NCBI GenBank assembly: GCA_965228735.1
Contig: OZ245838.1
Location: 7,008,001 to 7,072,000, forward strand
Source: Planctomycetota bacterium
GTDB taxonomy: Bacteria; Planctomycetota; UBA1135; UBA2386
Direction of reading: 5' to 3'
Length of the DNA stretch: 64,000 bases
Shown here: piece by piece, positions 41,077 through 57,718 of the stretch
Numbering within the stretch: the stretch's first letter is position 1
Layout: the number at the start of each line of letters is the position of its first letter
Notes under the pieces: model-generated
The model's input: the letters and a program-made list of their open reading frames with translations, nothing else
The model's database searches: none
Told to the model about the DNA's origin: nothing
Position numbers and translations under genes: made by a program

Positions 41077-43086
41077 ATGCCTCGGCTCCCGCTTCCCATC
41101 GCCCTCGGTCTCGCTCTCTCCTGCATCGGATCGGTCAGTGCCGCCCTGGCCCAGTCGCCGATCGCGATGCCCGGGTTCACGTCGACCTACGTCGGCAACG
41201 CGACGCGCGGGTTCTACTTCACGTGTCCCGTCGACTGCGTGATCACCGGACTGCAGGCGCCCAACGAAGCGTCGCAGCCAGCACAGGTCGTCGAGGTGCT
41301 CGATCTCGGAACGACCGCTCCCGCCGCGTTCCCGGCGACGACGGCCCCGGTTGGGCAGCTGTTCTACGACAACGCGGTGCCGGCCGGCACCCGGGTCAGC
41401 ACGAGCGTCGCTCTGCAGGCCGGTCGGGTCTACGGCATCTTCGGTTGCGCGACCGCGAGTGCGGGCAGCGCGCAGACGTTCTCGTCCTACGGCAACGGCG
41501 AGTTCTCGACGACGATCCAGGGCAACGCCGTCGTGCTGCGGCGGCTCGTGACGCAGAGCGGCATCGCGAGCAACGGCGGCAACCAGCCGTGTTCGGCGTC
41601 GACGGGTTCGATCGGGCGCGTGCTCGTCGACATCGAGCCGGCGGCCGGGCTCTACCCGAGCTTCGAACTCGACGTTGCCACGGGCCCGTCGCCGCTCACG
41701 GTGCAGTTCACCGACACGAGCACGACGAACGATCCGGGCGGTGTCACGAGCTGGGCCTGGGACTTCGACAACGACGGCACGATCGACTCGACCGCGCAGA
41801 ACCCGAGCTACCAGTTCATGACGTGCGGCGACTTCGACGTCAGCCTCACCGTCTCCGACGCGACCAACCCGCCGGCGACCGAGCTGCGGTCGGCAGCGGT
41901 GCGCACCGATCTGCTCGATCCGGGATTCCAGGTCGCGCTGCTGAGCCCGCCGAACGTCTGGCAGTTCACCGACACCTCGAGTCCGACGCCGACCGCCTGG
42001 GCGTGGGACTTCGACCACGATGGCACCGTCGACTCGACGCTGCAGAACCCGACGTTCCCGTCGGTGGGGCCGTGCCTCGACACGACGGTCCGCCTGACCG
42101 TGACCCGTGACTGTCGGACCGAGGCCACGGTGCGGCCCGTGTTCCGCGCGGCGGAGTCGTTCTTCGGTCCGACCGCCGGTGGCAACGGCACCACGAGCCT
42201 GACCGCGGCCGGCAACTACTTCGACATCGAGGTGACCAACCCCGGCGGCATCCGTGTCTGCGGCCTGGCCGTCGCGCCGCACACAGTCGCCGGGCCGCTC
42301 GACCTGACGATCTACGTGACGGAGGACACGTTCGTCGGCAAGGCCGGCAACGCCGGCTTCTGGCGCCTCGCCAGCACCGGCACCGGCGTGTCCGCGGGTG
42401 GCACGTTCCTCGCCCCGATCCTCAGCGACGTCGCACTCGACACCCCGTTCCTGTTGCCGGCGGGGAACTACGGCATCGCGGTCTTCCTGAGTTCGCCGAG
42501 CGGCATGGGCATCGCCTACACCAATGGCCCGGGCGGCCCGTTCGTCGGCGCCGACCTCGTCATGCACCCGAGCGGGGAAGGCGCCGCGAGCACGACCGAA
42601 CTCGGCAACGTGGTGTTCGAGCCGCGCCTCTTCAACGGCGGGTTCTACTACGCGCGCTGCAGCGTCGACGGTGAGGCCGCCCGCGGCTTCTACGGCACCG
42701 GCTGCCCCGGCGCGCTCGGCGTCCCGCAGCTCGACCCCGGCGTGACCGAGCCGGCGCTCGGCACGACCTACCAGCTCGACGTCACCAACGTCCCGAACGG
42801 CCTCGCCCTGATGTTCACAGGCCTCAGCAAGACGACCTCGATCTTCGGCCCACTCCCGCTCGACGGCGCCGCCTTCGGCGCCCCGGGCTGCCAGATGCGA
42901 GCCAGCTCCGACGTCGTCGAGTTCCTCCTGACAGCGACCAACACGGCCACCTGGACCCTCCCGGTCCCGAACGACCCCACGTTCCTCTGCCTGCCCATCT
43001 TCAACCAGGCTGCCGTCCTGTCGAACGGAACGAACGCCCTCGGCTTCGTCCTCTCGGACGCCTGGGCTGCACAACTGGGCAACTAG
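41077..43086 (+). CDS. Secreted protein with two PKD domains and a YGxGC-initiated C-terminal domain
   Basis: Signal peptide (ALA-Q); two FTDTS...WAWDFD.DGT.DST.QNP PKD motifs; C-terminus FYGTGCPG...GAPGC...NQAAVL...GN. Confidence 0.8.
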   Translation: MPRLPLPIALGLALSCIGSVSAALAQSPIAMPGFTSTYVGNATRGFYFTCPVDCVITGLQAPNEASQPAQVVEVLDLGTTAPAAFPATTAPVGQLFYDNAVPAGTRVSTSVALQAGRVYGIFGCATASAGSAQTFSSYGNGEFSTTIQGNAVVLRRLVTQSGIASNGGNQPCSASTGSIGRVLVDIEPAAGLYPSFELDVATGPSPLTVQFTDTSTTNDPGGVTSWAWDFDNDGTIDSTAQNPSYQFMTCGDFDVSLTVSDATNPPATELRSAAVRTDLLDPGFQVALLSPPNVWQFTDTSSPTPTAWAWDFDHDGTVDSTLQNPTFPSVGPCLDTTVRLTVTRDCRTEATVRPVFRAAESFFGPTAGGNGTTSLTAAGNYFDIEVTNPGGIRVCGLAVAPHTVAGPLDLTIYVTEDTFVGKAGNAGFWRLASTGTGVSAGGTFLAPILSDVALDTPFLLPAGNYGIAVFLSSPSGMGIAYTNGPGGPFVGADLVMHPSGEGAASTTELGNVVFEPRLFNGGFYYARCSVDGEAARGFYGTGCPGALGVPQLDPGVTEPALGTTYQLDVTNVPNGLALMFTGLSKTTSIFGPLPLDGAAFGAPGCQMRASSDVVEFLLTATNTATWTLPVPNDPTFLCLPIFNQAAVLSNGTNALGFVLSDAWAAQLGN

Positions 43087-43087
43087 C

Positions 43088-43583
43088 GCAACTGGACCAC
43101 GCCGCACGCCTGCGGCGCGGAGAACCGGTATCGCGGCACAAGCGGACTCTCGGCCTTCGGCCGAGTCGTCCTTGAGGATGTGAACGTACCGAACCCGATC
43201 TCTTGGTCTCGCTATGCGAACGGCGGGAGCGGCCGAGGTGAAGGTGTTCGCGTGAGGATGGCGTTACCGAACCCGTTTCAAATCCGCCACCGCCGACGTG
43301 GCTGTGTCCGTGTGCGGCGGCGGGCTGTGTCGAGGAGCGGCGTGGCGGATTCGAAACGGGTTCGGTAACGCCACGAGGGCCGGTGCACCACTCTCAGATG
43401 CGAAGTGGACGAGCGGCCGAAGGCCGCAAGTCCACCTGTGCCGCGATACCGGTTCTCCGCGCCGCAGGCGTGCGCTGGCAAGGAGGGCAAGCGAGCCGCG
43501 CGGAGGCGGCCTCCTGGCCGCTGAGCACGAGCGAGCGCCGGCCCGACGCAGTCCAGCGTGCGTCTGCGGCGTGGTCCAGTTGC
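43088..43583. repeat. Nested inverted-repeat element (REP/REPIN- or MITE-like, non-autonomous)
   Basis: Perfect 19-bp IR 43088-43106/43565-43583; perfect 37-bp IR 43104-43140/43437-43473; 32-bp IR with one mismatch 43259-43290/43342-43373. Confidence 0.85.
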
Positions 43584-43584
43584 C

Positions 43585-44694
43585 TTAAAGGTCTTCGAGG
43601 AAGACCAGCAGCGCGTCCACGTCCTGCGGGGACAGGGCCTGGAACGCGGCGGTGACGGCAGCGGCTTCGCCGTCGTGGGCCTTGATCGCGTCGACGATGG
43701 TCTCGGCGCGGCCGTCGTGCATGTACGGAGCGGTGTCGCGGATGCCCCAGAGCGGTGGGGTGCGGTAGAAGCCCACGTCGGCGCCCGGCTCGGCCATGCC
43801 GCGGAAGCCGGCGGGCATGACGTTGTGGAGCAGGAGGTTCGAGTAGAGCGGGACCGGGCCGGCGCTGCCTTGCAGGGTCGGGATGTGGCAGACGGCGCAG
43901 CCGACGGTGTTGAACAGCTGTTCGCCGGTGGCGAGGCGCGGGTCGGTCGAGCCGCCGCGTGCGGGTGCCGGCAGCGATGCAATGAACGCCGTGAGGTCGT
44001 CGATGGCGGTCTGGTCGAGCTCCGGGTCGGGAACGCCGTCGCTGTCGCTCGGGACCGCGAAGCCGCGGCCGACGCTCGCCGTCGTGATCCCCATCTCCTG
44101 GCCCATCGCGTCGCGCACGAAGTCCTCGATCGTCGGGACCTGGGCCTTCCAGCCGAGGCGTCCGATCTCGATGCTGCCGCCGATCGTCAGCCGGCGCGCG
44201 ACGCCGAAGATGCCGTCGTTGTTGGCGTCGGTCGGGTCCTCGTTGGCCGTGATGATCGGGCCGGAGATCGTGTCGATCAGGCCGAGGCCGAACAGGGTCG
44301 GCGTCTGACGCTGCTCGAAGACGTCGGCTTGCAGGCCAGCCGTCGGATGTTCTTCGCGGCCGGCGGCGTCCGGGGACCGCAGCTTGCTGAGGATCTGGCC
44401 ACCCGGCAGGTTCTGGAACGGGCCGGCGCCGCCGTTGTCGTTGGCGAAGCGCGTGACGTTGAGCTCGAGCCCGCCGGCTCCCCCGAGTCCGGGGTCCTGA
44501 TGGCAGGCGCGGCAGCTGTCGGCGTTGATGTCCGGGGTGCCGAGGCCGTCCGCGACGTGGAAGTTCCGGTCGAACAGTTCGCGGCCGTTCGCGATGTTGC
44601 CGCCCGGGCCCTGGAAGAACGCCAACGCACCGACGGTGAGGGCAGTGCCGACCCCGAGGGCGAGGGTGTGGCGATGAGTGAGGGACTCGAACAT
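43585..44694 (-). CDS. Di-heme oxidoreductase (DHOR/DUF1111-like), secreted, copy 2
   Basis: CRACH and CAVCH heme motifs, LFGLGLI, DPTDANNDGI, GRLGWKA, YRTPPLWG, YMHDGRA. Confidence 0.85.
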   Translation of the reverse strand: MFESLTHRHTLALGVGTALTVGALAFFQGPGGNIANGRELFDRNFHVADGLGTPDINADSCRACHQDPGLGGAGGLELNVTRFANDNGGAGPFQNLPGGQILSKLRSPDAAGREEHPTAGLQADVFEQRQTPTLFGLGLIDTISGPIITANEDPTDANNDGIFGVARRLTIGGSIEIGRLGWKAQVPTIEDFVRDAMGQEMGITTASVGRGFAVPSDSDGVPDPELDQTAIDDLTAFIASLPAPARGGSTDPRLATGEQLFNTVGCAVCHIPTLQGSAGPVPLYSNLLLHNVMPAGFRGMAEPGADVGFYRTPPLWGIRDTAPYMHDGRAETIVDAIKAHDGEAAAVTAAFQALSPQDVDALLVFLEDL

Positions 44695-44699
44695 TGCGA

Positions 44700-46010
44700 T
44701 CACAGATGCTTGAGGAAGGTCAGGACGTCGTCGCGCTCGGCCTGCGTGAGACCGAGGTAGTCCTCGGTGCTGGCGCTGGCCTCGCCGCCGTGCATGCGGA
44801 TCGCGTCGTCGATCGTCGCGGCCCGGCCGTCGTGGAGGTAGGGCGGGAAGAGGGACACGCCCCACAGCGGCTGCGTGCGCCACTCCTGGCCATTGGCGAG
44901 TGGGCTCGACGGCGAGGCCTGCGGCGAGCCGAAGTTGATCCCGTCGGCGAGTGCCGGCCCCATGTCATGGATCAGGAGATCGGTGTAGGCCCGCACCGGA
45001 CCGCGCGACGACGGCAGCTCGGGAATGTGACACTTCGCGCAGCCGATCTGGTCGAACAGCGCTTCGCCGCGCAGCGCCGCTTCGTCGAACGGCAGCGGTT
45101 CGGGCGGCGCGAGAAAGCGGGTGAACGCGATCAGGTCACCGAGGTCGTTGTGCGCAAGCTCGGGATCGGGCACGCCGTCGTTGTCCGTCGTCGGATCGTT
45201 CGGGTTGCCCGACGCCTGCGGCGCCATGCCCGGCGCGAGCGACACGGTGCCCGCCGAACCGAGGAATGGGTTGGTCGTGATCCCCATCTGGTTGAACAGC
45301 GGGGCGCGCGTGAAGATCTCGACGTTGTTCGACTGCGCCTTCGTGCCGAACCGACCGATGCCGGACGGGTCGGTGTTGTAGCGCCCACTGATCCCGTCGT
45401 TGTCGGCGTCGTCGGGGTCCGCGTTGCCCAGGATGGTCGTGTTCGAGACGAACTCGAACAGGCCCGTGCCGAAGATCGGGATCGAGTTCCGTTGCGCCGA
45501 TACCACGGGGTAGAACGGGTGGGACATCGGCGTGCGCGGCGCATCGAGTTCGTGCGCGGTCGAGAACACGCGCCCGAAAGCCGGAACGACGACGCTCGGC
45601 AGACCCGACAGGTTGAACTGGAACGCCGGGCCGAGGCCCGGGTCGACCTGCGCGACGTAGAAGTTCCGGTAGAGCCCCGCGCCGCCGCCCGGTTCGGGGG
45701 TGCTGTGGCACGAGGCACACGACGTCGCGTTGTAGAGCGGGCCGACCCCTTCGCTCGGCGTGAAGCGCTTGCTGAAGAGGACGCGACCGCGTTCGAACGC
45801 GGCGAGTTCCGTCGGGGTCAGGCCGGGCAGCGGGTCACCGAGCGCGGTCCGCGTCGGCGTCGGTTCGGGGTCCGGGCCAGGGTTGATCGGCGGCTCGCTG
45901 CCACCGCTCGAAGTGTGGCGGCACGCGGTCAGGGCGAGCGCCGTGCTCGCGGCGAGAAGCAGCGCGGTGCGACGGGTTTGGGTGGGCACTGGAGTCGTTG
46001 GATCGGGCAA
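44700..46010 (-). CDS. Di-heme oxidoreductase (DHOR/DUF1111-like) lipoprotein, copy 1
   Basis: Lipobox LTAC; GVGPLYNATSCASCH, DPDDADNDGISGR, CAKCH, YTDLLIHDMG, WRTQPLWG, YLHDGRA. Confidence 0.87.
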   Translation of the reverse strand: MPDPTTPVPTQTRRTALLLAASTALALTACRHTSSGGSEPPINPGPDPEPTPTRTALGDPLPGLTPTELAAFERGRVLFSKRFTPSEGVGPLYNATSCASCHSTPEPGGGAGLYRNFYVAQVDPGLGPAFQFNLSGLPSVVVPAFGRVFSTAHELDAPRTPMSHPFYPVVSAQRNSIPIFGTGLFEFVSNTTILGNADPDDADNDGISGRYNTDPSGIGRFGTKAQSNNVEIFTRAPLFNQMGITTNPFLGSAGTVSLAPGMAPQASGNPNDPTTDNDGVPDPELAHNDLGDLIAFTRFLAPPEPLPFDEAALRGEALFDQIGCAKCHIPELPSSRGPVRAYTDLLIHDMGPALADGINFGSPQASPSSPLANGQEWRTQPLWGVSLFPPYLHDGRAATIDDAIRMHGGEASASTEDYLGLTQAERDDVLTFLKHL

Positions 46011-57622: not shown

Positions 57623-57718
57623 CGGCGTGGTGTGCCGGCGGAGGCGGTTCGCGCCGGCAGATCGAACCGGGTACCGTACGTCGGTGAAGCTCCGGGCAAG
57701 ACCCGCTAAGTTGCGCGG

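Follow-up and report, generated by a model that had tools for sequence, protein, structure and literature searches.

A 64,000-nt stretch of Planctomycetota bacterium DNA (GenBank assembly GCA_965228735.1, contig OZ245838.1, positions 7,008,001 to 7,072,000 of the forward strand; hereafter the window) contains, at 43084-43587, a 504-bp nest of inverted repeats (IRs) that begins and ends at the stop codons of two convergent genes, one for a PKD-domain protein and one of the di-haem oxidoreductase (DHOR) family. The nest is probably, and with fair confidence, a pile-up of separate repeats: a miniature inverted-repeat transposable element (MITE) that has TA ends and resembles ERIC, a truncated inverted copy of the same MITE, and two repeats that share a core and were likely spread and nicked by TIRYT, a predicted HUH enzyme encoded elsewhere in the genome. 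The main points are a base-composition footprint that is linked to the repeats and controlled through orthologs in both directions, a spacer of fixed length that does not pair, and probable homology of the outer repeat to ERIC. The genome of the window, referred to as G000, is a single 7.19-Mb contig of 69% GC in an assembly 93% complete; other genomes carry G numbers of their own.

The inner doublet and its relatives

At the centre of the nest lies a 32-bp IR with one mismatch (43259-43290 / 43342-43373) that encloses 51 nt. Its arms belong to a family, here called A, which comprises 125 arms in G000, arranged as 49 facing pairs and 27 singles. The arms are well conserved, with a mean of 30.7 of 33 positions (93%) identical to the consensus, and their spacing is exactly 51 nt in 45 of the 49 pairs (49, 52, 89 and 374 nt in the rest). 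The two arms within an element are slightly more alike than arms across elements (p 0.0002).

The spacers, by comparison, are nearly unrelated in sequence (mode 21 of 51 positions identical, maximum 34), and the only conserved words are CAA at positions 14-16 and TTG at 36-38. Their halves pair less than permuted halves do (8.6 vs 9.7 of 25), and the spacers do not fold (mean z -0.4). Each is skewed one way along its length (r -0.55 between halves), and in 33 of 45 cases the G/T-rich strand is the leading one, about twice the intergenic baseline (p 0.001-0.004). Any left/right polarity beyond this base skew is marginal (337 vs a null of 326 +/- 6, null maximum 336). Two A elements with a degenerate second arm, at G000:C1:1603918 and 6840704, share all 51 inner bases, which is the sole evidence of recent whole-element duplication in the family.

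Family A occupies gene ends. Of 47 doublets, none is inside a called gene and 28 are flanked by convergent genes, with a stop codon at a median distance of about 6 nt (gene calls, 5128 in total, come from our own codon-model caller). Stops beside A follow genome usage, with TGA at 44 of 60, and A is therefore not TA-targeting. Eight A loci were queried for orthologs, one of which had none and one of which had non-adjacent genes; at the six others, 10 of 11 stop-to-stop gaps between adjacent orthologs in G001 and G002 are below 51 bp, compared with 116-130 bp in G000. Because these gaps are too short for a spacer, the spacer arrives together with the arms, and A doublets are inserted as whole 117-bp units directly behind stop codons.

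The sequence at 43180-43215, taken in the preliminary description for a partial third copy of the inner repeat, is instead an arm of a sister family, B, whose 18-mer has 20 genome copies at up to one mismatch and 32 at up to two. A 16-nt core of the GTACSGWAC type is common to families A and B, to a third family, C, and to the flanks of the TIRYT gene. This core accounts for 308 arms in 173 clusters in G000, and A, B and C arms co-occur as mosaics at the same sites. Family C doublets have conserved, often palindromic spacers. The copy-number check suggested for the element thus found the inner arms to be multicopy and the outer unit to have one close copy. Elsewhere in the window, one further single C-type core (exact) and one weaker match occur at 57664 and 58405.

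A scan of public genome contigs with the A-arm pattern returned two loci, both 100% identical to G000 DNA and therefore not independent. In a metagenome-assembled genome labelled Rhodospirillales, two 3-kb stretches at one end of contig CBDDJL010000002.1 match G000 with 100% identity, an indication that the record is chimeric or mis-binned.

A silent-site footprint in the flanking genes

Genes that abut these repeats have an altered composition at fourfold-degenerate sites. Over the last 20 codons, C/(C+G) is 0.64 in the 61 A-flanking and the 67 C-flanking genes and fades to about 0.51 by 100-250 codons, whereas 4318 control genes (1404 convergent and 2914 co-directional) remain at 0.50-0.52 throughout; a per-gene test of 195 against 3669 genes gives p 5e-26. 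The effect depends on the strand: C and A increase, at the expense of G and T, on whichever strand runs 5'->3' towards the repeat, and the skew in the flanks fades over 300-500 bp. It is present in all eight codon boxes, around single arms, and in leading and lagging genes alike. A replichore cause was rejected, as the footprint occurs on both replichores.

Orthologs allow the repeat to be separated from the gene. In G013, genes at a repeat reach 0.81 compared with 0.52 in the aligned codons of their repeat-free G000 orthologs (26 genes), with 84 vs 19 directional differences and 21 genes up against 4 down; filters on identity or end alignment removed 24 of the 58 gene ends and left 34 for this test. 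The 207 repeat-free G013 genes stand at 0.50. In the opposite direction, G000 genes at A doublets have 0.62-0.66 and their G001 and G002 orthologs 0.47-0.48. At the element's own two genes the footprint is clear for the PKD gene, with 0.62-0.76 over the last 200 codons vs 0.44-0.51 in the G002 ortholog, and less so for the DHOR gene (last 100 codons, 0.65-0.72 vs 0.56-0.57). The footprint tracks the repeat rather than the gene and appears only after the repeat has arrived.

Other repeats gave no such signal. Gene ends next to E. coli REPs (48 ends; REPs identified by motif in a 400-kb sample of 4.64 Mb) and next to ERIC-like MITEs of G019 (a small sample of 8) showed no gradient, and neither did 53 regions holding other perfect IRs. 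No description of flanking skew at REP, REPIN or TIR repeats turned up in open literature, figures and supplements excluded. Look-ups with the sequences of the inner and outer units returned nothing either.

The enzyme associated with the core

Long-spaced pairs of core arms lead to a single 342-aa open reading frame (ORF) at G000:6715991-6717019, 335 kb from the element and outside the window. It matches Y1_Tnp (PF01797) at 26.8 bits, above the Pfam cut-off, and the NCBIfam REP-associated transposase model NF047646 at 49 bits, under its cut-off of 80; its sole PDB match is TnpA-REP (4ER8). A C-terminal helix-turn-helix (HTH) region is indicated by Sigma70_r4 and HTH_23-like matches at residues 270-310. 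Residues H60, H62, Y119 and N123 are invariant in 14 homologs, and some homologs, those of G000, G002 and G003 included, have A in place of the P of the Y---NP motif. This long, HTH-bearing protein is the only Y1 homolog found in the genome; a six-frame PF01797 search gave 0 matches, a false negative that missed the gene. A single-sequence AlphaFold model was poor (predicted local-distance difference test score 45) and was not used.

The gene is itself bracketed by IRs, 28 bp at 89% identity in G000 and 36 bp and perfect in G013, and the same holds for most of 17 inspected homologous loci, where the repeats often lie directly behind stops. The motif GGGGWSAS is absent from the G000 and G013 arms and present in the terminal inverted repeats (TIRs) of G021 homologs. 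From the available text of three classifications, TIRtrons/TIRYT (PMC3733652), TnpA-Y1 subclass 2.1.2 (PMC6006769) and RAYT Group 1 (PMC5581495) designate one group, and the domain layout and flanks of the putative enzyme fit it. Gene ends that face TIRYT genes in 10 genomes show C/(C+G) of 0.75 falling to 0.50, with 18 of 20 above their own interior. It is likely, judging from these sequence features, that the resident TIRYT spreads the repeats and nicks DNA at them.

The preliminary description had proposed that an inner REPIN-like doublet was mobilised in trans by an unidentified enzyme, that no transposase lay in the window, and that copies might flank RAYT/TnpA(Y1), IS110 or RT genes. Conserved, spaced arms and a predicted trans-acting enzyme uphold the first proposal, while the test for a hairpin spacer failed; a TIRYT-type HUH protein can now be named for the inner superfamily, and no enzyme was found for the outer unit. 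No homolog of the partner enzyme was found in the window, where not all ORFs were screened for other transposases. C-type core arms flank the TIRYT gene and A-type arms do not.

Of 41 related genomes, 21 encode a homolog of the enzyme, which is near full length in 11; a metagenome scan added one distant locus, which was not used. The exact core pattern matched only G000 and G013 among the 41 and proved too strict, as arms vary by lineage. In G033, G022, G028, G003, G034 and G036, each genome has its own multicopy repeat family that matches a relaxed form of the core. Doublets in G033 are variably spaced, at about 48-88; in G000, arm distances of 63, 73 and 83 suggest helical phasing by eye, which was not seen in G033. 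At G022:C1:3913035-3916961, a TIRYT homolog lies between two inverted, near-identical repeats of at least 280 bp that resemble transposase 3' ends.

The TIRYT gene adjoins the same Rho-like gene (a label from sequence reading) in G000 (C1:6717097-6718527) and G002 (C923), and G001 gave no match; the neighbour shared by G000 and G002 suggests vertical inheritance. The core is also carried at 8 of 34 orthologous gene ends in both G013 and G000, which belong to different genera. This exceeds what the share of repeat-bearing genes would lead one to expect and suggests that the copies are very old or that the same sites were used repeatedly.

Anatomy of the locus

The features of the locus, in window coordinates, are as follows.

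41077-43086, plus strand: left host gene, PKD-domain protein; stop TAG at 43084-43086, within CTAG
43088-43106, plus strand: left terminal 19 bp of the outer unit, D; perfect inverted copy of 43565-43583, ending at the CGCA deletion joint
43103-43172, plus strand: left-arm remainder; 37 bp shared without difference with the right arm, and a CC-TTC-GG hairpin unit
43180-43215, plus strand: family B arm; variant of the TIRYT core
43258-43290, plus strand: family A left arm, 33 nt; 16-nt core at 43264-43279
43291-43341, no strand: family A doublet spacer, 51 nt; unique sequence, halves non-pairing
43342-43374, minus strand: family A right arm; conserved
43408-43583, plus strand: complete outer unit D; hairpin unit, 37-bp segment and terminus; 92% identical over 170 bp to G000:6768562-6768731
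43462-43569, plus strand: ERIC-like hairpin core of D; covariation, 18 of 35 pairs changing on both sides
43585-44883, minus strand: right host gene, DHOR family; stop TAA at 43587-43585, within TTAA

The three nested IR pairs of the preliminary description, of 19, 37 and 32 bp, are present in the sequence at the positions it gave. The outermost is a perfect 19-bp IR (43088-43106 / 43565-43583). The 37-bp perfect part belongs to a 61-nt IR of 93% identity (43103-43163 / 43414-43474), which also includes a hairpin whose stem is altered on both sides between the left and right arms, in agreement with the compensatory differences noted earlier. Likewise, both ends of the element do read stop, 1 nt and then a common word, an identical 13-mer. 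The pairs had been thought to fill the whole intergenic space; about 85 nt to the left and 35 nt to the right of the inner doublet lie outside every pair. Folding of the region is far better than that of shuffled sequences (z -15; 0 of 100 equally good). Rfam gave three sub-threshold matches only, and neither a sigma-70 promoter nor an intrinsic terminator was found in the element.

Public-run contigs speak against the misassembly considered earlier. Three sets from separate studies (X1, X2, X5) tile 43084-43587 by overlapping pieces with zero differences, and a fourth (X4) leaves a 4-nt hole among the pieces listed; the check is a piecewise tiling, in which no one piece covers the complete element.

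The empty site sought in relatives exists in G002, of the same genus, where the stops of the orthologous PKD and DHOR genes are 4 bp apart; about 500 bp of the element are therefore insertions. In G001, each gene end then meets the inverted end of an unrelated insertion sequence (IS)-like element, on separate contigs, so the junction has been struck independently in two species. The IS-like element (C45:1-702; C7:39085-39376) has inverted ends of about 25 bp and a transposase-looking ORF. The DHOR gene is one of two in tandem (44700-46010 and 43585-44883, both on the minus strand), a pair conserved in G001, G002 and G013.

The outer unit and its resemblance to ERIC

Outer and inner repeats are two unrelated non-autonomous families, as had been supposed: D outside and A-type inside. 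The right arm of D has one close copy in G000 (92% over 170 bp), at a site that is likewise occupied by D in G001 and G002; three further, more distant copies have intact ends. Intact copies measure about 180-215 bp and are TA-ended within CTAG or TTAA (G000, G002, G011, G017, G019). The association of the outer family with TA-containing stops was likewise well founded, as both ends of D at this locus are on YTAR, a context shared by 335 of 5128 called stops (6.5%), and intact members are flanked by TA.

A model of D (R1) built from 13 copies, none of them enterobacterial, detects D in 10 of 41 genomes, as many as 54 times in a single one. Pairing in the core reaches 96%, compared with 34-41% in slid controls, and 18 of 35 pairs change on both sides, which none of 500 shuffles attains. 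For comparison with ERIC, the query was an E. coli K-12 repeat that we take to lie between rpsB and tsf. It agrees by eye with the ERIC consensus in the accessible part of PMC2759123 and has 15 chromosomal matches. The D model recovers position and strand at 14 of these 15 loci, as the top match at 13, with the motifs in register and scores of only 9-23 bits. D is thus ERIC-like and, from these model matches, probably homologous to ERIC.

Reverse-complementing the right arm and removing 94 bp (90 unique and 4 of microhomology) between two CGCA words gives the left arm; the deletion and its microhomology were correctly recognised at the outset, with a size of about 91 bp. As a result, 43103-43172 is without the segment that bears the ERIC-like core. 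In the 37-bp segment, the left arm carries the right-arm allele at all three sites that differ from the other genome copy. It is likely to be a local inverted copy of the right arm, from which slippage between the CGCA repeats would then have removed exactly the core hairpin.

The distribution of D does not track TIRYT across genomes, and no autonomous partner or enzyme for D was found in G000 or in nine sampled stretches of G019 and G012. G019 has some 140 exact CTAG/TTAG-CCCGGAC ends, which represent an abundant ERIC-like MITE of about 180 bp, often stacked with other repeats, and it has no TIRYT match.

A proposed mechanism

Enzymes of the HUH superfamily leave a 5'-phosphotyrosine and a free 3'-OH, according to the consulted portion of PMC3479197. 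The HTH domain of TIRYT would bind the arm cores and its HUH-tyrosine centre would nick nearby. Repair synthesis from the 3'-OH could then displace the strand that runs outward from the nick, and C>T and A>G deamination of this displaced strand would match the sign of the observed skew; repetition would leave its mirror-image form. A GC-restoring pressure at silent sites would turn deamination into the G/C exchange seen against orthologs. The opposite arrangement, 5'->3' resection with deamination of the retained inward strand, was rejected, as it would predict the opposite sign of skew. The spacer may be an unpaired loop formed when the arms fold back on single-stranded DNA, which would permit rapid substitution, with its length held by the geometry of two bound arms; such a role on single-stranded DNA fits the replichore-linked skew of the spacers.

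A broader proposition is put forward only tentatively. TIRYT-type enzymes may nick hundreds of dispersed repeats recurrently, each repeat behaving like a miniature origin of bidirectional repair synthesis, by which several hundred bases at the 3' ends of neighbouring genes are rewritten and the spacer is randomised; separately, ERIC may belong, as a single branch, to a MITE superfamily whose range extends to this distant lineage.

Weighing the explanations

Several observations weigh against this account. Genes oriented away from a repeat are only weakly shifted (0.51-0.54 vs 0.44-0.49), and transcription may therefore contribute. Both gene ends tested in G033 are without a footprint, though that genome is repeat-rich. 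Differences from orthologs are mostly G/C transversions, which deamination explains only indirectly, via the GC-restoring pressure. Binding, nicking and movement by TIRYT are predictions. Enrichment of the relaxed core motif over a reversed control reaches 1.8-fold or more in 7 of the 11 genomes whose homolog is full-length (the other four are not enriched), in 2 of the 10 with a weak match and in 0 of the 20 that have no homolog; because the motif was derived from TIRYT flanks, this test is partly circular. With respect to ERIC, scores are low (best 23 bits), and a strict search of the whole E. coli chromosome and pairwise alignment gave no D-ERIC match. Lastly, the resident TIRYT is flanked by C-type, not A-type, arms, and A and B may belong to a TIRYT that was lost from G000 or is missing in the assembly.

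This last point can be developed into an alternative that has a modest chance of being right, namely that a second, lost or unassembled TIRYT, or another enzyme, spread A and B, and that the resident gene serves C only. Full-arm identity with the TIRs of the resident gene is confined to family C, and A and B are linked to that gene through the shared core. G013 shows that a genome can carry two TIRYTs with different arms, and the flanks of its second one are the nearest match to the A/B core. No A-type arm was found beside an enzyme gene among the G000 arm pairs or in scans of public contigs and metagenomes. On the other hand, A arms at 93% identity amid randomised spacers suggest continuing protein-driven selection, A, B and C form mosaics at the same sites, and A-flanking and C-flanking genes bear the same footprint, all of which weighs against this alternative.

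An origin of the skew at the RNA level is unlikely. Here, selection for C-rich, Rho-loading 3' ends, or antisense or read-through transcription from the repeat, would produce the footprint, leaving the anatomy and the enzyme link unchanged. Such an origin would suit the far stronger shift in genes pointing into a repeat than in those pointing away, the convergent orientation of the genes around 28 of 47 A doublets, and the lack of a detectable intrinsic terminator in the element. However, Rho sites are pyrimidine-rich, and on the coding strand T drops while A rises, which is a poor fit. The convergent controls, the other-IR regions, the E. coli REP genes and the genes at ERIC-like MITEs all lack a gradient, and outward-pointing genes are weakly shifted in the same strand direction.

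That the whole 504-bp nest is a composite mobile element with TA-targeting outer ends, which is the strongest form of the preliminary description and would make the outer pair the two ends of one multicopy element, is improbable. Both ends are indeed inverted D termini on YTAR, and the G002 site is empty. Nevertheless, the composite is single-copy in G000, an inverted partner is missing at the other close copy of D, and the conserved core is gone from the left arm, an apparent truncated local copy. The tetramers at the two flanks, CTAG and TTAA, are moreover not the same, and each holds the stop codon of the gene it adjoins. The nest is real but an accidental, one-off composite of known kinds of repeat and not a mobile unit.

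That the 51-nt spacers derive from capture or from DNA already present, as guide-like or target-derived sequence, and do not represent a fast-evolving linker is very improbable. Their exact length and nearly unrelated sequences would agree with capture, but their best genomic matches only slightly exceed those of shuffled spacers, they show no excess similarity to their own flanks, and the empty sites are too short to have supplied them. The spacer at this locus is also identical across public runs, and a few spacers share 14-30 nt in register, which indicates that these descend from one another. Captured host DNA, a copy of the flank and a hairpin were accordingly ruled out as identities of the A spacer by the match, flank, folding and empty-site tests. 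An assembly artefact can be practically dismissed: misassembly can create long perfect IRs, but every unique junction of the element is present without differences in independent public runs, and the flanking genes bear the footprint.

Comparison with known systems

The inner system resembles TIRYT, as far as the available descriptions go, in having an HUH enzyme with a catalytic Tyr and a C-terminal HTH, a gene between IRs, and dispersed singles, dimers and clusters. It differs from most TIRYT in a core of the GTACSGWAC type instead of GGGGWSAS, from RAYT Group 1, for which the accessible text gives low flanking 16-mer counts (12), in its 173 clusters, and from published TIRYT in that several arm types share one gene. 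The portions of the TIRYT literature that were available describe no flanking mutational footprint.

Pseudomonas REPINs, in the parts of PMC3116915, PMC3337134 and bioRxiv 2021.07.10.451892 that were accessible, likewise have inverted arms, are extragenic and lie near 3' ends, with a spacer conserved in length and unique in sequence in each copy. Unlike REPINs, for which the same partial sources report a spacer hairpin (PMC3337134, PMC3116915), family A has spacers that do not pair. Furthermore, no conserved GTAG precedes the A arms, and the enzyme is not of RAYT Group 2/3.

D shares TA ends, a long irregular hairpin and insertion at gene ends with the ERIC/IRU/RU-1 MITE, as outlined in the available text of PMC2229807, PMC2759123 and PMC10969869, and, at low model scores, with ERIC also the ordered core motifs in register. 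Compared with ERIC, given there as 127 bp, D is longer (about 180-215 bp) and GC-rich, the copy at this locus is degenerate and rearranged, and D occurs far outside the Enterobacteriaceae and Vibrionaceae that the accessible part of the review names. The stacking of different short repeats in one intergenic region recalls BIME mosaics (PMC3116915, in the part available), from which the nest differs in combining two unrelated systems in an arrangement unique to one locus.

Significance

By itself, the locus is a tidy case of repeat pile-up, and its importance lies in the effect of the inner family. A 2022 REPIN review gives in-vitro cleavage of single-stranded REP DNA as the only functional link between REPINs and RAYTs. 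The cellular role of RAYT and TIRYT enzymes is an open question, to which the strand-specific, distance-dependent shift adds a record of activity in vivo; it also makes a direct test of enzyme and repeat possible, with or without the catalytic tyrosine. Analyses of codon usage and substitution rate near such repeats are biased. An ERIC-like core in a distant, GC-rich lineage widens the range of genomes in which an ERIC-moving enzyme can be sought. If the proposed mechanism is true, it would assign a local mutator activity to a class of domesticated transposases of no known function.

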